Positions 19,094-63,969 of a stretch of DNA of 64,000 bases are shown piece after piece. The DNA is from Candidatus Levyibacteriota bacterium (GTDB taxonomy: Bacteria > Patescibacteriota > Microgenomatia > Levybacterales > GWA1-39-11). The stretch spans positions 92,325 through 156,324 of the forward strand of contig JAGORM010000002.1 of assembly GCA_018062815.1 (NCBI GenBank), given 5' to 3'. Position numbers and translations under genes: made by a program. A model generated the notes under the pieces. The model searched no databases. It was not told where the DNA came from and saw only the letters and a list, made by a program, of their open reading frames with translations. Within the stretch, counting starts at the first letter, position 1. Each line of letters begins with the position of its first letter.

Positions 19094-21226
19094 TCATATA
19101 CATACTCCTGCGCCAGGATTGTTTGTAAAGACACAGGCAGTACCCGTTTTCATTTGTAGGCACTGATTATTTCTGGTGCAGCTTGTTACGTTTACTTCAG
19201 AGTTGGTGGATGCTGTACTGCCTGAAGTACCTGTGCAGCAGATATTTCCTTTTCCTGATTTCTGACATGAATAATTATGTCCCAATGGAGAAGCCAGAGT
19301 GCCTGATTTACACGTGTTTCCTGACTCACAGTGATAAGAGCTTGTATTGCAGTATGCGCCTGATTCTGAGGGGTCTTTGTATACACAATATGATGTTGCA
19401 GTTCCCGTACTGCTTGTACACTTAAATTCAGGGGCACAGTCGCTATTCCCATTATAACAGTGGTCGTTTTCCCTTCCTGATCCTCCCGTATTTCCTCCAC
19501 CACCTGATGAGGGAGCAACACAACTAGATTTATTTGCCATGCATTTCCCTTGCGCTTCACAATAGCGTTCAGTAAATCTACAGCAGTAAGTCTGGTTTGA
19601 GGAGTTATTTGCGTCTTTCCATCCGGGGTAGCATGCGTTATCTGAGCTTCCTCCGCAAGAGCTTCCCTGAGTTGTGCATGATTGACCTATCTGATTATCG
19701 CTGTTATTGCCGTTTTCACCGGTATTGTTTCCCGGGGGAGGATTTTCTTTTTTTTGATCATCATTTTTGGGAGGACTATTATTATTTCCAGTGTTTTCAA
19801 GACAACAAACAGAGCGAGAACTGCCATACGCGTTTGCGCATGCTAAATTTGCTTCTTGTTGCGTAGCGTTTGTGTCAGGCTTAAATCCAGTGCCACATGC
19901 CGTTGCCTGACAGGTATTCACTTTTCCAGAAGGACCTATGTTATTGCATGCGCTTGGACGGAATGTGCACTTAGCTCCATCCCAATAAGGAGTAGGGTCT
20001 TTACAGGTCTGTCCTTGAGGAGGCTGAGGGAGTGTGCCTGAGTTGTCTTGCACCCAGGGGAATTTGTTACATATCTTCATGAGACCGTTTTTAGGTGTAA
20101 AATCATAGGTTTTATCAGCACAAAGATAGACATCATAATATTTACCCGTCGCATAGGGATTTGGGGTTGATTTTGCTTTTTGATCTGTAAATAGACCCAG
20201 TTTATAGTTTTCATTTGTGGGTTGGGTTGTCATGCATATTGGCCCGTAATATCCGTTGGGATAGGAATCTGTATTAACCCCGTTTTTCTCTTTGCAGATG
20301 ACTGTGGTAGAAGATTTACCCGTGCCGGGATTTTGTTGGAAATTATTACCTTCACCTTCAAAATAAGCGCTTTTTTTAAGTGTCTCTTTTTCTCTTAAGT
20401 TAAAATTTCCTCCTGGGAAAACGCCTTGATCACCCATTATGGAATTTTTATATTCTGGGGAATTAACGGGATATCCTATCTCGTTCGGATGAGAAAGTCC
20501 AAATGTATGTCCTAGTTCATGAGCTATAGCTCCCGTGCCCTGTCTGCTAGTGGGCATTTTTTCAGAAGTACACCTATCAACGGAATTAATCGGGTCATTT
20601 TTGTAATAATATTTTTTTATTCTATTACAGTTTTTGTCCAACTCTGGGTAAATGGAGACATCTCCAATTACGGCAGTCGCAAGTTCACCATTTGCGCCCG
20701 CGTATCCTCCGCCACCCATAAATGCTACAATATTAATTGTTCCAAACTGAGGTCGTCCTATTTCTTGAAGTATATTGCCCATGCCATCTTTTTGAATACA
20801 CTCTGTCTCTCCGTTGCTGCACCAATACCATTCTGAATCTTTTTTCCCAATAACTGTTTTTACCGGTTGCAAAACAAATGTTTTCCCGTTCAATTGCTTA
20901 CCGTAATATGTGCGTATTTCATCCATTTTCTGATTAATATGATTTACTACAGCGTTATCTACTGGATAGTCTGTTGGAAAAAATACTATTGGTTGAACAG
21001 AAAAAGCATTATCCGCTATGCGAGAAGTTGTGGGCTGATTTACCTGGTTTGGGTTGCGAGTTAAACTATTTAAAAAAGAAAGTCCTCCAAACGGAACAAA
21101 GATTGCTATCGCAACGGTTGCAAGTGTGAGGAGAGACAAAAAACCTGAGGACTTATTTATTGTTTTATTGCTAGGTTTAATAAAAGAAGTTTTCATAAAA
21201 TAGGTTTGTTTTAAGAAATCACACAT
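19094..21226 (-). CDS. secreted zinc metalloprotease of the metzincin type with a long Cys/Gly/Asn-rich C-terminal region
   Basis: AHELGHTFGLSHPNE is the HExxHxxGxxH signature, with a downstream SIMGD Met-turn candidate. There is an N-terminal TM/signal. The roughly 300-aa C-terminal tail has many Cys, with N/G/S-rich low-complexity stretches. Confidence 0.6.
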   Translation of the reverse strand: MCDFLKQTYFMKTSFIKPSNKTINKSSGFLSLLTLATVAIAIFVPFGGLSFLNSLTRNPNQVNQPTTSRIADNAFSVQPIVFFPTDYPVDNAVVNHINQKMDEIRTYYGKQLNGKTFVLQPVKTVIGKKDSEWYWCSNGETECIQKDGMGNILQEIGRPQFGTINIVAFMGGGGYAGANGELATAVIGDVSIYPELDKNCNRIKKYYYKNDPINSVDRCTSEKMPTSRQGTGAIAHELGHTFGLSHPNEIGYPVNSPEYKNSIMGDQGVFPGGNFNLREKETLKKSAYFEGEGNNFQQNPGTGKSSTTVICKEKNGVNTDSYPNGYYGPICMTTQPTNENYKLGLFTDQKAKSTPNPYATGKYYDVYLCADKTYDFTPKNGLMKICNKFPWVQDNSGTLPQPPQGQTCKDPTPYWDGAKCTFRPSACNNIGPSGKVNTCQATACGTGFKPDTNATQQEANLACANAYGSSRSVCCLENTGNNNSPPKNDDQKKENPPPGNNTGENGNNSDNQIGQSCTTQGSSCGGSSDNACYPGWKDANNSSNQTYCCRFTERYCEAQGKCMANKSSCVAPSSGGGGNTGGSGRENDHCYNGNSDCAPEFKCTSSTGTATSYCVYKDPSESGAYCNTSSYHCESGNTCKSGTLASPLGHNYSCQKSGKGNICCTGTSGSTASTNSEVNVTSCTRNNQCLQMKTGTACVFTNNPGAGVCI

Positions 21227-40809: not shown

Positions 40810-42381
40810 ATGAGAAACGCTCTTCAGATAATAGGCATTGTTTTAATTCTACTCCCATTTTATTTTTTTCTTTATAAAATTTTCTCAGTGAGAGCATTAT
40901 CATTTGGATGTTTTGATGATTGCGGAAATTATATGGCGGGGTATTTCATGAATCAAGGTAGAGTGCTGTATTCGGAGATATTCTATAACCATATTATGGG
41001 TGCGGCCTGGCTATCCTATTTTATACAAAAATTTCACAGCTCAATAAATGTTTATGATTTAGTACTTGTTCACAGACAAGTAATATTGATTATCTCATTT
41101 ATGTTTAGTGTAATTTTCATAAAACGATTTGGCTGGTTGGGATTTTATTTTATCGTATTTTATGAGCTGAGTAAATTTTATTTTTTTGGTGACAGATTTT
41201 TGGCTGAATCAATTGTTGTATTTGCAGCGGCCTATTTGGTAGGTGTACTTTTCTATAAGTACCAATACAAACAATTAAAAACTTTTGACATTCTCTTTTC
41301 TGGATTTTTAACTTTTTTAATTATATTTTTACGTGAGCCTTATATTCCATTAGCTGTATTTTTATATACAGCTATTTTATACGGAAAACAGTACAAAAAA
41401 ATAAAAACAGTATCAATTATGATATTTTTATTCTTAATTTTTATTGTCGCAATAAATACACAAGTTAAAGATTTTTTTTTCAACGATTTTACGGTAAATA
41501 TGCAGACTGCAATAAAAGGTGAGATTGGTAGAAATAACACATTTGGTGTTGGGATAATACAGGTGTTTTTCTACCCCGTGTTTATATTTATGTATGGGAA
41601 AATTAACGCATTGCGCTTTTTTGAAGTTGCGCTAAGTATTGCGTTTATTTTTGGAATAGTTTTTGTATTTCTGAAAAAAAGAAAAAGGACAATGGCTATC
41701 CTTGTTGTATTATCACTTGCGCTTGCAAATATACGAGTAACACCTCCCGGGACATCCTACTATGAGGCATATCATATGCTTGTTTGGTACGGTATGTATA
41801 TCTTTATAACTCTAGCACTGCTTATGGTATTAATGAAAAAGTATAAAAAGTTAGGAATCGCGCTTTCTGTAATTCTAGCTGTTTCATGGGGGTATTTGGT
41901 CTTTTTACCGGGATCATATCTGTATGACAAAATAGACCTGCAGGAGCAGCTGCTTACGAATTTTGGAAATGATATGAACATAGGAAATGTTATTAATCAT
42001 TTATCAGATTCATCTGACACGTTATTTTTAGATGGGGGAGATGACATGATTTATTGGGTTTCTAAAAGAAATTCACCTTATAAATACAGTTTATATACGG
42101 GGGTAATGCCACAGATAAAATTGTATAAAGATGCAAGAATTAATATGTTTAAATCTGATCCTCCTGACTTTTTTTATGATTTCTGTTCACCTAGAGCTCC
42201 TTATAATACTCAGCTCCCATCTTTTGTAAAATCATCTTATGTTCAACTCCTTTATAATGGAAAACCTAGCTGTTTATATATAAGAAAAGAAAAGATGAAA
42301 AAAATAACTCCTGCCCAGTGGAGAGCAGCAAATGAGGGGTTTTTTAGTTTATCTCAAAACAAAGAAAATAAAAATGAATAA
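40810..42381 (+). CDS. large polytopic membrane protein (possibly a PMT/ArnT-like glycosyltransferase or polymerase)
   Basis: More than 10 TM helices; no catalytic motif confidently seen. Confidence 0.35.
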   Translation: MRNALQIIGIVLILLPFYFFLYKIFSVRALSFGCFDDCGNYMAGYFMNQGRVLYSEIFYNHIMGAAWLSYFIQKFHSSINVYDLVLVHRQVILIISFMFSVIFIKRFGWLGFYFIVFYELSKFYFFGDRFLAESIVVFAAAYLVGVLFYKYQYKQLKTFDILFSGFLTFLIIFLREPYIPLAVFLYTAILYGKQYKKIKTVSIMIFLFLIFIVAINTQVKDFFFNDFTVNMQTAIKGEIGRNNTFGVGIIQVFFYPVFIFMYGKINALRFFEVALSIAFIFGIVFVFLKKRKRTMAILVVLSLALANIRVTPPGTSYYEAYHMLVWYGMYIFITLALLMVLMKKYKKLGIALSVILAVSWGYLVFLPGSYLYDKIDLQEQLLTNFGNDMNIGNVINHLSDSSDTLFLDGGDDMIYWVSKRNSPYKYSLYTGVMPQIKLYKDARINMFKSDPPDFFYDFCSPRAPYNTQLPSFVKSSYVQLLYNGKPSCLYIRKEKMKKITPAQWRAANEGFFSLSQNKENKNE

Positions 42382-48336: not shown

Positions 48337-48996
48337 TTACAACCTGGCAAGATACATATATCCTTTGTTTTTGGTAGAGTAGACTATATCTACGTCTATT
48401 TTCTGTCGTAACCTCCTTATTATTCCATTAAGTTTATTTATATCTCCTGTGTTAGTTAGTGAAATTAGTTCTTGATTTGGTATGGCTCTATTAGTGTTTT
48501 GAGTTAAAGCAAAGAGTATTTCAAATTCATTTTTGGTAACTGGAATATTTTGTCCATTGTTTTCGACCCTTAGTCTTTCAATATCTATTTTAAGCCCCTG
48601 TGTATTTTCCACGGGCTTATGCACTTCCGGGCTAATCATTCTATTCTGTATAGCTTGCATATGAGCAGATAACACTTCAGGTGATTCAGAAGTAATGTGC
48701 ACGTGATCCGCACCTTTATTTAGATATTCAGTAGTTTTTCTGTAGGAAAGTTGAGAAGGTGACATTGCGACAATCGTTCCGCGTGGAAATACATTTTTTA
48801 AATCTTTTAGACTAGACTCTGCGACAAGAAAGATATCATTTTTTTGGCGTAAGCTCATAGCCTCGCTAGCGTTTTGGATATAAGTTACTTTATGACCCAA
48901 TGATCGTAAATCTTGGGTAAACAACAGTTCATCCTCCATTTTTGCATCAAGTGCTACCACGGAGGCTTTATGTGATCGTAATATTTCTTGTTGCAT
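48337..48996 (-). CDS. OmpR/PhoB-type winged-helix regulator with a degenerate receiver domain
   Basis: C-term TKNEFEILFALTQN...LNGIIRRLRQKI...STKNKGYM matches the OmpR wHTH. The N-terminal domain lacks the clear DD...D...K receiver residues. Confidence 0.5.
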   Translation of the reverse strand: MQQEILRSHKASVVALDAKMEDELLFTQDLRSLGHKVTYIQNASEAMSLRQKNDIFLVAESSLKDLKNVFPRGTIVAMSPSQLSYRKTTEYLNKGADHVHITSESPEVLSAHMQAIQNRMISPEVHKPVENTQGLKIDIERLRVENNGQNIPVTKNEFEILFALTQNTNRAIPNQELISLTNTGDINKLNGIIRRLRQKIDVDIVYSTKNKGYMYLARL

Positions 48997-49442: not shown

Positions 49443-49469
49443 TATTGTGACTTATTTCCTTGACATCGT

Positions 49470-50102
49470 ATGGTTTCGTGTTACTATTACTTTGTGAGTG
49501 TAAAACTTTGGTTAATTATAGGCGCAGCAGTAGTAATATTTGCCGGTCTTTTTGGATTCATGTATCTGCAAAGCATGACAAATAGAGCAGCAACAAACAC
49601 TATGATGAAAAAATCTTCGTCTACCGAATCATCCGCATTTTCATCACTATCAGACATATTTACAAATAAATCCTTAAGTTTAACTTGTGACTTTATAGAT
49701 AAGGAAGGTAAAAAAACAAAAATTTATATTAAAAGTGGAAAAGTAAGGGCAGAAATTACGGGTAATGAAGTTGAAGATTCGGGGAATGTAATAGTAAAAG
49801 AAGACACAATGTATTTCTGGAATGGAACGCAAGGTATGATGATGAAATATGATACTGAAAAAATGAAAGGTGATAACGCTCAGAATTTGAATGCTGTTCA
49901 GGGGCAAGCAGTTCTTCAGGGGATAGAGCAATATAGGCAGTCATGTTCTCCTGCAGTAGTTTCTGATTCTCTATTTACTCCACCTGTAAATATCAAATTT
50001 CAGGACTTGTCAGAAATGATGAAAATAATGCCAAGCGGTGCAACTGTACCAAGCATTAACCCTTCACAATATCAAGACTTGATGGAGCAATATCAGCAGT
50101 AA
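49470..50102 (+). CDS. hypothetical membrane-anchored secreted protein (paralog of 51214..51747)
   Basis: N-terminal TM. KKTKIYIKSGKVRAEI...TMYFWNG...IEQYRQSCSPAVVSDSLFTPP aligns with the paralog's TKTKTYIKNGKIYIQV...HVYIWDS...IEKYRDSCVEADVSDAIFIVP. Confidence 0.4.
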   Translation: MVSCYYYFVSVKLWLIIGAAVVIFAGLFGFMYLQSMTNRAATNTMMKKSSSTESSAFSSLSDIFTNKSLSLTCDFIDKEGKKTKIYIKSGKVRAEITGNEVEDSGNVIVKEDTMYFWNGTQGMMMKYDTEKMKGDNAQNLNAVQGQAVLQGIEQYRQSCSPAVVSDSLFTPPVNIKFQDLSEMMKIMPSGATVPSINPSQYQDLMEQYQQ

Positions 50103-50112
50103 TTTCAGGGTT

Positions 50113-51156
50113 TTAGCTCATAATCCCAGTAATCATTGCTACTACTTTATTTTCCTCATTGTCTAATCCGTCTATTTTTTTTAGTTTCTTAGCGTTTGCC
50201 ATTTTTTCCCAGTTTGAGAGTATAGAGCCTTTTATGTAAGCATCTATAACATGAGGATGAATGTAGTATTTTCTGCAGGTATTAGGTTTATTTCGCAAGT
50301 GACTTGCTACTTTTTTTACAATTTCAACAATATTTTTTTTTGAATCTTCCTCTTGAGCTGGAATTCCTGCTTTGTCAAATGCCGTGGCTGCAAGAACAGT
50401 TCCTCCCCAGGTTCTAAAGTCTTTTGCTGTAATTTCTGCACCTGTTATCTCCTGAAGATATGTATTTACATCTTGGGAGGAAATAGATTGAATAATTCCT
50501 TCTTCATCTTTGTATTCAAATAGATCTTGACCGGGAAGCTCTTTGCATCTTCTTACAATTTTTGCTACTTTTTTATTTTTGATACTTACATTGTGGTATA
50601 CGCCTGACTTTCCCTTGAACTGAAAAACAATATTTGATTTATAGGAAACACTTGCGTGTTTATTCTTGAGCGTAGTAAGTCCATAGGATTTATTCTCGCG
50701 CTCGTATTCCTCGTTACCAATTCTGATTAGTGTGTTTTCAAGAAGCCAGACCACAGCAGATATTACTTTTCTTCTCTGAATTCCCATAAGTGTTAGATCC
50801 TGCTTGACGGTAGCTCTTATTTTGGGAAGATGCTGTGCAAACTCCAAGAGATGTGAAAATTTTTCTTGCTGTGAAATTTGATTCCAAAGCGGGTTGTACC
50901 TATATTGTTTTCTTCCCCGAGCGTCATATCCTGTTGCTTGAAGATGTCCGTTTGCATGAGAGCATATCCAAACATTTTTGTATGCGGGGGGTATTGCAAG
51001 TTTTTGTATTCGATCAACTACTTTTTTATCTGTAATTTTTTTTCCTTCGGTATCAAAATACTCAAACGTGTTTCTGACTCTTTTTCTTGTGTATCCAGGT
51101 TTTTTGTCCGTAGAGTATCTTAGGTTTGTATTCTTTAGGAAATCGTTATCAGTCAT
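50113..51156 (-). CDS. type IB DNA topoisomerase (poxvirus/bacterial TopIB type)
   Basis: N-term LRYSTDKKPGYTRKRVRN...IPPAYKNVWIC...GYDARGRKQYRYNP. The C-terminal RKYYIHP region is the candidate active-site Tyr. Confidence 0.7.
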   Translation of the reverse strand: MTDNDFLKNTNLRYSTDKKPGYTRKRVRNTFEYFDTEGKKITDKKVVDRIQKLAIPPAYKNVWICSHANGHLQATGYDARGRKQYRYNPLWNQISQQEKFSHLLEFAQHLPKIRATVKQDLTLMGIQRRKVISAVVWLLENTLIRIGNEEYERENKSYGLTTLKNKHASVSYKSNIVFQFKGKSGVYHNVSIKNKKVAKIVRRCKELPGQDLFEYKDEEGIIQSISSQDVNTYLQEITGAEITAKDFRTWGGTVLAATAFDKAGIPAQEEDSKKNIVEIVKKVASHLRNKPNTCRKYYIHPHVIDAYIKGSILSNWEKMANAKKLKKIDGLDNEENKVVAMITGIMS

Positions 51157-51213
51157 TCACCTATTATAGAGTATTACTTGAATGATGAATAGGCTTTTTT
51201 GTAATATTAATGA

Positions 51214-51747
51214 GTGCGAATAAAAATAGGAATTTTTCTACTAATTATCTTTATAGTTTTAATGTTTCTTGGGGGATATGTAGTTATTCAGAATGCAAGA
51301 AAGATGTTTACTCCGGAAAAAAGTTCTTCTCAGGCAGCTCTTTTCACTTCATTAGAAGATATTCTTACAAAAAAAATGAGTATAAGATGTGAGTATACTG
51401 ATGAAGCCGGAACAAAAACAAAAACTTACATAAAAAACGGGAAAATATATATCCAGGTTATTTCAGTAGATCCCTTTGAAAACCTAACGGTTATATACGA
51501 AAATAATCATGTCTACATTTGGGATAGCAAGAACGCAACAAAAATTTTACTGCCTGATAATCTGATAAAAACAGCAAGTATAGGCATGCAACAGCAAATT
51601 TCCCAGGGTATTGAAAAATATAGAGATAGTTGTGTTGAGGCAGACGTTTCAGATGCCATTTTTATAGTTCCTAAAGACATAGAATTTATTGATGCGTCGG
51701 ACTCAAAGAGCGGGGGAAATGCTCTGTTAAAACTTATAAACAGATAA
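51214..51747 (+). CDS. hypothetical membrane-anchored secreted protein (paralog of 49470..50102)
   Basis: See 49470..50102. Confidence 0.4.
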   Translation: MRIKIGIFLLIIFIVLMFLGGYVVIQNARKMFTPEKSSSQAALFTSLEDILTKKMSIRCEYTDEAGTKTKTYIKNGKIYIQVISVDPFENLTVIYENNHVYIWDSKNATKILLPDNLIKTASIGMQQQISQGIEKYRDSCVEADVSDAIFIVPKDIEFIDASDSKSGGNALLKLINR

Positions 51748-51803
51748 TAGAAGGGTGTGGGGAGGTATAATTCTTATTTGAAACAGTTATTTTTGTACTA
51801 TGG

Positions 51804-52295
51804 TTATGCTTTCTCGTACTCGCCCATTTTAAGCCATTCAATGTAGGCGCACCCCGTTGCCATACGTTTTTCCTTGTCCCATCCTGCAGTTTGGCATTTT
51901 TTCATTTTTTTACCTGTTGCTGTGGTATAAAGTACTAATTTTTTTCCGCACATGGGGCAATCCTCATCTAATTCTTCGCTTGATCCGTTTATCCACTCAA
52001 CAAAATCGCACCCTGTTGCTTTTTTTGATTCCTTATCCCAAATGTTTGTACTGCATTTTTTCATTTTCTTCCCGCTTTTAGTTGTAGCCATTACAAGTGG
52101 ACTTCCGCATTTAGGACATGGCTCTGATAAGGCTTCAGGTTCTATTTCTAGCCACTTAACATAATCGCATCCAATATTTTTTCTCTCATCCTTGTCCCAT
52201 GATCCAGAAGAGCATCTTTGAAGTTTTTTACCCGTTGTCGTAATGGATATTGGGGATAATTCTGATCCGCATTTAGGACATGTTTTTTCAGACAT
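51804..52295 (-). CDS. protein made of three tandem topoisomerase-type C4 zinc-ribbon repeats
   Basis: Three repeats follow the pattern CP(K/M)CG...L......(T/S)G(K)K(M/L)(K/Q)(R/K)C(S/Q)...WDK(E/D)......GC(D/A)(Y/F)(V/I)(K/E)W. Confidence 0.55.
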   Translation of the reverse strand: MSEKTCPKCGSELSPISITTTGKKLQRCSSGSWDKDERKNIGCDYVKWLEIEPEALSEPCPKCGSPLVMATTKSGKKMKKCSTNIWDKESKKATGCDFVEWINGSSEELDEDCPMCGKKLVLYTTATGKKMKKCQTAGWDKEKRMATGCAYIEWLKMGEYEKA

Positions 52296-52353
52296 AGTAT
52301 CTAATACTATGTGAGATGCTTTTACATGTCAATACTTGACATTGATATATTAA

Positions 52354-61874: not shown

Positions 61875-62822
61875 TTAAAAGAGGTCTTTGGTAAGTTCAG
61901 TTAAAGAAAATTCTACCTCAAAAGTGGTTCTGTCACCAACATTTACATATAATGACAACGTGTCTTTTTCCTCTTTTTTTATAAGTCCACCACAGGAATA
62001 TATAACGCGTCTTTCTTCTGGATGCAACTCCTCTATAAGCGGAGTACCATCCTTGTTTAGAAAATTATCCGGAGTTAGTATGGGGTCGGGAGCTACCACA
62101 ACTTTAAATTGATTTTCTTGTCTAATTAATTTTGCGCGTCCTATGCTATATACATACTTTTCTGACCCGTCAATTATTTTTTTTGATATACCGTGGATTA
62201 TAAAAAGTGCTTCATGTGGGGTAATCCATAGTGGAGGCATAGTAGTACCTATTCTCCACATCGCCCAGGGTAAGTTAACAGGAAAGACAATATCACCGAG
62301 TTTTTCTGGCACTTGTGAATGGAGAGAGAAAGCTAAGAGCTTGTGATAATAATCTTCTGATTCAGGGCGAAAAAGGTAAGTAGTGTTATCAATCGGAGTT
62401 AAATTTTTCCCTGGACCAAAAGTTCCTATAAAAAGAAACGGAGGAAGCTCCTGTTTCCAGGATTGTAGGGAATCTATTTTGACAATTGCCGGAAATGGTA
62501 CTGGTTTTCCTGTTTTGCTTCTTAAAACAGAAGTGAGCCCTATGAGTAAATTACCATTGCTTAGGAGGAGGGCACGTGGATCTTCTAAGCTAATATTATC
62601 ATATAACGGTTTCCATATTATACGTTCATGAATATTTGCTCCGTATTGATCTATCTCAAACAGTTTTAGAATTCCAGTATCAGGTTCACCATTTTCCCCG
62701 GGTGTTGTTACTTCACGACCTATAAAACAGACAGAATTATCATCTGTTTTTTGCCATACAGCCAAATTGTAACGCGCTACGTCTATATTTGGAAAGATAT
62801 ATTTTATTTGTTTAATTTTCAT
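61875..62822 (-). CDS. hypothetical protein, possibly a beta-propeller glycosidase/phosphorylase-like fold
   Basis: No confident motif. It is co-oriented and overlapping with the downstream glycosidase-like gene. Confidence 0.3.
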   Translation of the reverse strand: MKIKQIKYIFPNIDVARYNLAVWQKTDDNSVCFIGREVTTPGENGEPDTGILKLFEIDQYGANIHERIIWKPLYDNISLEDPRALLLSNGNLLIGLTSVLRSKTGKPVPFPAIVKIDSLQSWKQELPPFLFIGTFGPGKNLTPIDNTTYLFRPESEDYYHKLLAFSLHSQVPEKLGDIVFPVNLPWAMWRIGTTMPPLWITPHEALFIIHGISKKIIDGSEKYVYSIGRAKLIRQENQFKVVVAPDPILTPDNFLNKDGTPLIEELHPEERRVIYSCGGLIKKEEKDTLSLYVNVGDRTTFEVEFSLTELTKDLF

Positions 62823-63969
62823 TTAATTGTGTAATTATAATACTTGACATTAAATATGATACCTGCGATTCCGCTCCTTGATTAAGATTGACACGATCCG
62901 GGTGTAAACCGTCGTAGCAACCCCCATTTGTATAATCATATAGTGCTTTTTTTAAACTGTTATTACCCAAAAACCAACTAAAGCAGATATTAGCTAATTT
63001 CCTATAATTGTCCTTTCCAGTGTAACGGTATGCACTTGCTAACGCAAGAATCATTGATGCTGGATCTTCCGGTTGTTGGTCATAGCTGCTTCTTTTCTCT
63101 TTATTTTTATACCAATGTGTGTGTCCAATTGGTATGTATGTTTTAGAAAATGTTTTGCTAATAAGAAATTGTAAGCTTAACACTCCTTGAATGCCATATT
63201 TTTCATTTTTTAATGTTTCCGAGGCTATAATAAGACTTTCGGGGAGGAGTGCATTGTTATAGTTTAAGTCATGTTCAAACCATCTCCAAGACTTAATAGA
63301 GTTTTTTGCCAATGCGTGGAGTAAGGAATCTGCATGTTCCTTTATTTTTGCTTTGAGTAGAGGCTGCATTTCAGGAAGAACCGTTAAAGCCAGGGAGAAA
63401 GATTTTATTGCCAATGCTTTTGCGCGTAGATGGGTGAGTTTTATGTCTTGTTTCAGATTAAGAAGAAAAATTCTTTTCGCCTCTTGTCTTATCCCTGGTG
63501 AGATATTTTTGTTTGTCATTATTTCAGATAATCCCCATAAGGCACGCATTTGTGCATCTTCTAAATCTTCTATGCCGTTTTGTTTAGTAGGTGTTTTATC
63601 ACCAAATTCAACATAATTCATGAATGATCCGTCTTTTTGTTGACAATTCTTAATAAATGTAAGATATACTTTCAGTAGCCTTTTCACTTTATTTGTATAG
63701 CCAATTTTAATCAGCCAACTGCAGACTATAAGTGCGCGCGTATTGTCATCTAATGTGTAGCCAAAATCTTTATCCGGATCTGAAAAGCGTGCAAACTGGA
63801 ATAAGCCAAAATTATCCGTCATATGTATGAGATGGTCTAGTTTTATAGGAGGTATAGATAATTTTCCAAGAAGTGACAAATATTCACGTGCTACATTACT
63901 CCACATCATGCTGCGCGTATTTTTATAAGCATTTTTGTGCATTCGCAAAAGTCTCTTCTTGTCTCCCAA
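62812..63969 (-). CDS. putative six-hairpin (alpha/alpha)6 glycoside-hydrolase-like protein; the N-terminal limit is uncertain near the window edge
   Basis: Trp/Tyr/Asp-rich helical repeats (YTLDDNTRALIV..., DAQMRALWGL...). The family is not identified. Confidence 0.3.
   Translation of the reverse strand: MGDKKRLLRMHKNAYKNTRSMMWSNVAREYLSLLGKLSIPPIKLDHLIHMTDNFGLFQFARFSDPDKDFGYTLDDNTRALIVCSWLIKIGYTNKVKRLLKVYLTFIKNCQQKDGSFMNYVEFGDKTPTKQNGIEDLEDAQMRALWGLSEIMTNKNISPGIRQEAKRIFLLNLKQDIKLTHLRAKALAIKSFSLALTVLPEMQPLLKAKIKEHADSLLHALAKNSIKSWRWFEHDLNYNNALLPESLIIASETLKNEKYGIQGVLSLQFLISKTFSKTYIPIGHTHWYKNKEKRSSYDQQPEDPASMILALASAYRYTGKDNYRKLANICFSWFLGNNSLKKALYDYTNGGCYDGLHPDRVNLNQGAESQVSYLMSSIIITQLNEN

Follow-up and report, generated by a model that had tools for sequence, protein, structure and literature searches.

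A type IB topoisomerase gene (topIB) lies between two paralogous genes, A and B, and close to a gene for a small zinc-ribbon protein (ZnR), in a stretch of 64,000 nucleotides (nt) from Candidatus Levyibacteriota bacterium (contig JAGORM010000002.1, positions 92,325 to 156,324 of the forward strand) that we refer to throughout as the window. We read these as four separate genes of unrelated function, whose adjacency reflects a local, lineage-specific gene order in Levybacteria (Microgenomatia, Patescibacteria), and we give this reading a probability of roughly 0.75. As a locus it is unexceptional, its components being of known kinds. A first-pass annotation, made from the sequence alone, had suggested that ZnR could be either a trans-acting partner of TopIB or an independent factor binding single-stranded DNA (ssDNA), and that topIB might have been acquired horizontally. 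The open reading frames (ORFs) of the window, together with the Pfam, PDB, profile, repeat and composition analyses used below, were computed in this analysis.

Two samples of loci, one centred on each gene, bear on whether ZnR is tied to TopIB. The ZnR-centred sample took in the 80 best loci, extending at most 10 kb to either side of the gene. The TopIB-centred sample covered five Patescibacteria lineages outside the window genus, in which TopIB is 78% (locus L168), 75% (L172), 76% (L173/174), 66% (L169/170) and 67% (L171) identical to that of the window; here the flanks reach up to 6 kb on each side and shorten to about 1 kb where a contig stops (in L172 the upstream flank is about 1.2 kb). 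TopIB was found within 10 kb in only 4 of the 80 ZnR loci, which represent two independent lineages, leaving 76 without it. Conversely, none of the five other Patescibacteria TopIB lineages has ZnR within the flanks of up to 6 kb. Both genes are present about 20 kb apart on contig SRR32548942_27, and in genome CAZCYO they lie on different large contigs (L046, L171). ZnR is moreover widespread in its own right, two strict peptide patterns placing it in at least 535 species genomes. These counts speak against a dedicated trans-acting partner of TopIB, and we conclude that the function of ZnR is independent of TopIB. The first-pass annotation had itself named two outcomes that would tell against its proposal, namely a ZnR family widespread without TopIB and an absence of the flanking paralogues around topIB in relatives. 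The former is what we find in the species genomes and the 76 loci, while for the latter, relatives with a TopIB identity of at least 75% do carry A/B-type genes beside topIB.

Three points weigh against reading the locus as four unrelated genes. First, in the second of the two lineages that combine the genes (L019/L022, with TopIB 48% identical to that of the window), topIB immediately precedes ZnR and is transcribed in the same direction; about 130 nt separate the two when measured to the conserved ZnR start, and 94 nt when measured to the longest ORF. The other lineage consists of close relatives of the window (L008 and L009, TopIB 89% identical) that share its A-topIB-B-ZnR layout, and since the window was chosen for this adjacency, only L019/L022 counts as an independent observation. 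If about 60 lineages are taken as independent, a genome as holding about 1000 genes, and TopIB as occurring in no more than half of the genomes, a rough estimate of the chance expectation for such a case is about 0.05-0.1; this is suggestive but not significant, and leaves room for a weak association. Second, in several lineages A/B-type genes have stayed in place next to topIB, and this may reflect something other than inertia. Third, the LolA-like assignment of the modelled A protein, taken up below, is weak.

ZnR is best read as a stand-alone, putatively ssDNA-binding protein akin to YrdD and to the C-terminal part of TopA. As described in the first-pass annotation, the 163-residue protein consists of three tandem C4 zinc ribbons. 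Each is a 53-residue repeat with four cysteines. The repeats are 37-55% identical to one another, are visible as a 159-nt period in the DNA, and follow the pattern CPxCG-x16-C-x14-C-x-[YF]-[VI]-x-W; the 12 cysteines (C6/C9/C28/C43, C60/C63/C81/C96 and C113/C116/C134/C149) are all invariant in 18 homologues. On the Pfam profile Zn_ribbon_Top1 (PF01396) the protein scores 32.4 bits, barely above the gathering score of 32, and the L019 homologue scores 38.9 bits. Aligning the ZnR family profile with E. coli YrdD in hhalign gives a probability of 95.4% (E-value 1.9e-8, 112 columns). The variant repeat of ZnR is also found at the C-termini of type IA topoisomerases, proteins with Toprim and Topoisom_bac domains (P0320, P0324, P0360, P0396). 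The view that the ribbons are of the kind found at the C-terminus of type IA topoisomerases therefore stands as to kinship, but they are a variant of it with about 9 extra residues, including an invariant tryptophan. Between the third and fourth cysteines lie 14 residues, this tryptophan among them, as against about 2-6 in a canonical second knuckle, and YrdD shows a 9-residue gap relative to the ZnR family at this place in the hhalign alignment.

The AlphaFold2 (AF2) model of ZnR is all-beta, with a predicted local distance difference test (pLDDT) score of 76.5, and its best Foldseek matches are to E. coli TopA (4rul and 9gda, E-value 0.02). Domains D5-D7 of that enzyme (PDB 4RUL) form the best structural match, though over the whole model the match is weak, the repeats being arbitrarily oriented relative to one another, and unlike D5-D7 ZnR has no fused topoisomerase core. 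A sequence search of the PDB with ZnR returned one match, to an AI-designed TIM barrel, which we rejected as spurious. Ribbon domains of the TopA C-terminal type have been described to bind ssDNA (PMC4678816), and a report cited in that paper describes Zn-dependent ssDNA binding by E. coli YrdD (b3283), which has four TopA-type ribbons. Like YrdD, ZnR is small and made solely of tandem four-cysteine ribbons of the topoisomerase IA C-terminal type. It differs in being built from three repeats, where YrdD has four. Every repeat contains the insertion of about 9 residues with its invariant tryptophan, and the C-x-[YF]-[VI]-x-W motif after the fourth cysteine; a conserved acidic-proline tail characterises the family (the window copy lacks it); and the family is far more conserved, at about 70% identity across classes, and was seen here in Patescibacteria only. 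The second option of the first-pass annotation, an independent ssDNA-binding factor, is thus the best-supported reading, suggested by the YrdD/TopA kinship together with the spread of ZnR independent of TopIB. ZnR would bind ssDNA through its conserved aromatic residues, independently of TopIB, and the family probably derives from the ssDNA-binding domains at the C-terminus of type IA enzymes.

The ZnR family comprises 1974 clusters; its named members, from Levy-, Roizman-, Moranii- and Saccharibacteria, are about 70% identical. An exhaustive search of 1.84 billion representatives with a ZnR hidden Markov model gave only 281 matches, in which all full-length members form one cluster at 50% identity. 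Our literature search found no paper on topoisomerase-type zinc ribbons in Patescibacteria. Nearly all members outside the window lineage (loci L010-L087) end in the tail G[ED]EF[LM]PP[ED]P; a minority carry GGEPK..EPPMP.DP, and L046 alone ends in SEDMPF. In the window lineage, all nine loci (with ZnR identities of 86% or more, and counting the window's own species) end in EYEKA and have no tail, and the genomes without a tail are precisely the ones where B adjoins the 3′ end of ZnR (window 51804-51830). In most members the GEEFLPPEP tail probably recruits a partner; the window lineage has lost it.

Several observations concern the wider family. A single ZnR-type repeat occurs C-terminally on a Rad52/Rad22- or Erf-like annealing protein and on a protein matching phage families whose function is not known (P0328, 206 amino acids; P0333, 187 amino acids), and in both the repeat is followed by an acidic tail, EEEDYPFPEEEL, at the end. 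These fusions suggest that the ZnR repeat is a portable ssDNA-binding module. A replacement of SSB by ZnR was considered and rejected: two Levybacteria loci with ZnR (L078, L084) also encode a canonical SSB ending in a DDIPF tip, so that ZnR is there an addition to SSB and not a substitute. Nor did the 80 loci yield a conserved neighbour that would serve as a general clue to function, the neighbourhood being variable. The commonest neighbour is a gene for an ABC-type ATPase of about 490 residues, found downstream in 20 of the 80 loci, mostly about 19 nt away on the same strand. A PolB-exonuclease-like gene (PF10108) stands divergently upstream of ZnR in 7 of the 80 and is followed by GreA in L179. 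Many of the low-GC metagenome-assembled genomes that carry ZnR (L009-L083, median locus GC 0.39) are titled ‘uncultured Gammaproteobacteria’ or ‘Pseudomonadales’; with ZnR about 70% identical to that of Levybacteria, these titles look like placeholder taxonomy.

The tail and the fusions also allow ZnR to be seen as a general ssDNA-binding adaptor of Patescibacteria, a freed TopA C-terminal domain that would dock DNA enzymes through its tail or its ribbons and for which TopIB would be one client among others. Such an adaptor would explain why topIB has come to lie beside ZnR twice independently, in the window genus and in L019/L022, as well as the Rad52-like fusions with acidic tails, but we consider it unlikely.

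We regard it as quite unlikely that ZnR serves TopIB specifically, as a trans-acting DNA-binding subunit supplying the ribbons that type IA enzymes carry in cis. The closeness of the two genes in the window genus, the independent case of L019/L022 with topIB immediately upstream on the same strand, and the topoisomerase-associated type of the ribbons would all fit such a subunit. The co-occurrence counts given above argue against it, as do the two genomic settings in which the genes are unlinked or distant, and the identity of about 70% between classes points to a function for which an enzyme of such patchy distribution is not required. The arrangement in the window (Table 1) points the same way, with an opposite-strand gene between the two and a promoter-like site belonging to ZnR itself.

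Table 1. Coordinates of the four locus genes and associated features in the window
Feature	Position	Strand	Remarks
Paralogue A	49494..50102	+	ORF opens at ATG 49470; likely start GTG 49494
topIB	50113..51156	-	347 amino acids; PF01028 and PF21338
topIB/B divergent intergenic region	51157..51213	.	57 nt
Paralogue B	51214..51747	+	177 amino acids, GTG start; 161 amino acids by some gene callers
ZnR	51804..52295	-	163 amino acids; PF01396
ZnR repeats	1 = 52137-52295; 2 = 51978-52136; 3 = 51819-51977	-	
Sigma-70-like promoter match	49460..49487	+	TTGACA, 16 nt, TG, TACTAT; putative, from consensus scan
Sigma-70-like promoter match	52304..52332	-	TTGACA, 17 nt, TAGTAT; putative, from consensus scan

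All four ORFs named in the first-pass annotation were recovered at the coordinates and on the strands it gave, and A and B do run in the same direction, opposite to topIB. A and topIB are convergent with a 10-nt gap, topIB and B are divergent, and B and ZnR are convergent, 56 nt apart. The description of ZnR as lying immediately downstream of topIB applies to window coordinates only; by transcription ZnR, which shares the strand of topIB, lies upstream of it. The two are separated by the oppositely oriented B and therefore form no simple operon. A scan of the region for consensus promoters gave no more matches than expected from shuffled sequence. The match directly upstream of ZnR suggests that this gene may be its own transcription unit, and the scan found no consensus promoter in the divergent region between topIB and B. 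The start of A is probably GTG 49494, giving a protein of 202 residues that begins MSVKLW, because NCBI annotation has this start (P0241, 202 amino acids) and relatives have an in-frame stop upstream. The promoter-like match of A ends 6 nt before this GTG and overlaps ATG 49470, and the mRNA of A may be leaderless.

By sequence, TopIB itself is a complete poxvirus-like bacterial type IB topoisomerase. It matches the Pfam families Topoisom_I (PF01028; E-value 6.8e-40, 137.3 bits against a cut-off of 23.7) and Top1B_N_bact (PF21338; 1.1e-24, 86.3 bits against a cut-off of 27), and residues 30-341 match the TopIB of D. radiodurans (PDB 2F4Q) with an E-value of 9e-61. The first-pass annotation had proposed a check of the catalytic pentad, and a script run on the 2F4Q alignment finds it intact as R145, K183, R248, N289 and Y298; all five residues are invariant in 16 Patescibacteria homologues. 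They align to R137/K174/R239/N280/Y289 of the D. radiodurans enzyme. By family membership, TopIB would relax supercoils via a 3′-phosphotyrosyl intermediate at Y298, aided by R145, K183, R248 and N289. The D. radiodurans protein (PDB 2F4Q/3M4A) has the same two-domain architecture, at 346 amino acids versus 347 here, and its R-K-R-N-Y pentad aligns residue for residue, with asparagine in place of the poxvirus histidine. It is reported to be active on its own, which we count against a partnership between TopIB and ZnR. Compared with it, the TopIB of the window is a member of a Patescibacteria clade, with identities of 58-79% to other Patescibacteria TopIB and 45-53% to the rest.

The best 120 TopIB relatives from the database are 58-100% identical to the window protein, and those with a name are from Levy-, Curtiss- and other Patescibacteria. 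A metagenome scan with a Patescibacteria TopIB alignment gave only TopIB from outside the Patescibacteria, which was 45-53% identical and lay on high-GC contigs (median GC 0.64). No ZnR, A or B gene was present at these non-Patescibacteria TopIB loci, which serve as an outgroup only and are uninformative on Patescibacteria.

A and B are confirmed as paralogues, for which the first-pass annotation had estimated roughly 30% identity: BLASTP aligns them at 33% identity over 163 residues (E-value 3e-25). Both are also predicted to be membrane-anchored, as had been noted, with an N-terminal hydrophobic helix in each (residues 6-41 in the AF2 model of A). In A this anchor is followed by a predicted extracytoplasmic domain of about 140 residues with two invariant cysteines, C73 and C159 (ORF numbering). 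The residues C73, Y115, W117, C159, F169, P172 and F177 are invariant in 13 aligned A/B members, and in alignments of 39-45 sequences C73, W117, C159, P172 and F177 remain invariant, with Y115 and F169 at least 90% conserved. A profile search of the A/B family returned 51 relatives, all hypothetical proteins with no Pfam domain; few have a source name, and those mostly from Patescibacteria. The AF2 model of A has a confident core, residues 70-130 and 160-180 scoring above 90 in pLDDT. Its best fold match in the PDB is LolA (7z6w), a weak one with an E-value of 0.03, a probability of 0.97 and a template modelling (TM) score of 0.33-0.37, and LolB appears lower in the list. Unlike LolA and LolB (PDB 7z6w, 3wjt, 8cm1), of which LolA is the best match to the predicted ectodomain, A is membrane-anchored, has a conserved cysteine pair and shows no sequence similarity. 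A also occurs in bacteria that are not known to have an outer membrane. We read A and B as old paralogues from a small uncharacterised family of membrane-anchored, extracytoplasmic proteins, apparently confined to Patescibacteria, with one conserved cysteine pair and possibly a LolA-like half-barrel; they would bind a hydrophobic ligand at the cell surface and be unrelated to DNA topology.

The arrangement of these genes around topIB is partly shared with relatives. A B-type gene is found upstream of topIB and divergent from it in L172, and in L168 with a DUF2207 gene in between, and an A-type gene lies downstream of topIB and convergent with it in L173/174. A neighbour-joining tree of the A/B family groups the proteins by position, the B of the window falling with the genes upstream of topIB in L168 and L172. 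Such flanks persist only at TopIB identities of 75% or more, and both are absent at the loci with TopIB at 66-67%. Each relative that keeps one flank is without the other, a histidine kinase replacing B in L173 and Gmad2 genes replacing A in L168 and L172. Small Gmad2 (PF10648) proteins are encoded on the opposite strand, 0-2 kb from topIB, in L168 (7079-7603), L169 (4624-5091), L172 (2672-3118) and L174 (2743-3183). Other A/B members occur apart from TopIB, distant ones standing 1.5-2.5 kb from ZnR where there is no TopIB (L014, L023, L030, L059, L179) and others near neither ZnR nor topIB (L177, L178). The simplest reading is an old syntenic neighbourhood of ZnR, an A/B-family gene and msrB, with topIB within it in one subclade. 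The B/topIB/A arrangement would have been present in the common ancestor of the lineages with TopIB at least 75% identical and would have decayed differently in each, and ZnR would have come to adjoin it only in the window genus.

One may ask whether B, topIB and A belong together as a conserved module, joined by function or by common regulation, for example with a shared divergent control region coupling an envelope function to DNA topology. The recurrence of the B-type gene upstream and the A-type gene downstream in separate lineages, a family tree that follows position, and the mere 57 nt between B and topIB could all be taken in this sense. We nevertheless hold such a module to be very unlikely: the genes are on opposite strands, TopIB is a cytoplasmic, DNA-bound enzyme and A and B are predicted to be extracytoplasmic, one flank has been lost in each of L168, L172 and L173, the 66-67% TopIB loci lack both, and the family occurs elsewhere without TopIB. 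More generally, the predicted extracytoplasmic location of A and B and their position on the opposite strand make a functional link between them and topIB unlikely.

The first-pass annotation had also called TopIB sporadic in bacteria and consistent with horizontal acquisition. The distribution of bacterial TopIB is indeed scattered overall (PMC2647321), but a recent gain in this lineage finds no support in the Patescibacteria relatives of the enzyme, its typical composition or the lack of bounding repeats, and nothing indicates a recent horizontal acquisition. topIB has a GC content of 0.358 and a third-codon-position GC (GC3) of 0.287, compared with 0.370 ± 0.033 and 0.289 ± 0.028 for the ORFs of the window (overall GC about 0.36), and both values lie within the window range for all four locus genes. 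The direct or inverted repeats that were to be looked for at the edges of the block were not found in the repeat search, whose matches correspond to the internal 159-nt period of ZnR, the A/B paralogy and short AT-rich chance matches; Pfam matches and gene calls likewise gave no integrase or transposase gene nearby. That the block at 49.4-52.3 kb is a recently acquired island carrying topIB is therefore highly improbable, its one attraction being the scattered distribution of the enzyme, and against it stand, besides these results, the closest TopIB matches, all from Patescibacteria at 58-79% identity and with those from elsewhere at 45-53%, and the flanking genes (MsrB, TMEM175-like, TspO, Crp-like) that are syntenic in relatives.

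A few features elsewhere in the window were noted. A gene for an OmpR-type regulator (48337-48996, minus strand, 219 amino acids) has a Pfam match for the C-terminal DNA-binding domain only and none for a receiver domain, and has no adjoining histidine kinase gene; its receiver may be degenerate or atypical. A complete response regulator and kinase are found close to topIB in relatives L168 and L173. The 3′ end of a 16S rRNA gene occupies positions 1-516, and beyond it two tRNA genes (770-841 and 1557-1628) lie on the other strand. No 23S rRNA gene is present in the remaining 63 kb of the window, and the rRNA genes are therefore unlinked. Three large ORFs have no Pfam match at an E-value of 1e-5 or below, at 19094-21226 (minus strand, 710 amino acids), 40810-42381 (plus strand, 523 amino acids) and 62812-63969 (minus strand, 385 amino acids).

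A TopIB working with a trans-acting ribbon partner and flanking paralogues would, if true, be a new topoisomerase architecture; the evidence speaks for ordinary gene order, and as such the arrangement matters little. What the locus does bring to attention is a protein of Patescibacteria, made of three zinc ribbons of the TopA/YrdD type, that is unstudied and conserved at levels like those of ribosomal proteins. ZnR is thereby a testable candidate for a lineage-specific factor in DNA metabolism, in organisms that are hard to study.

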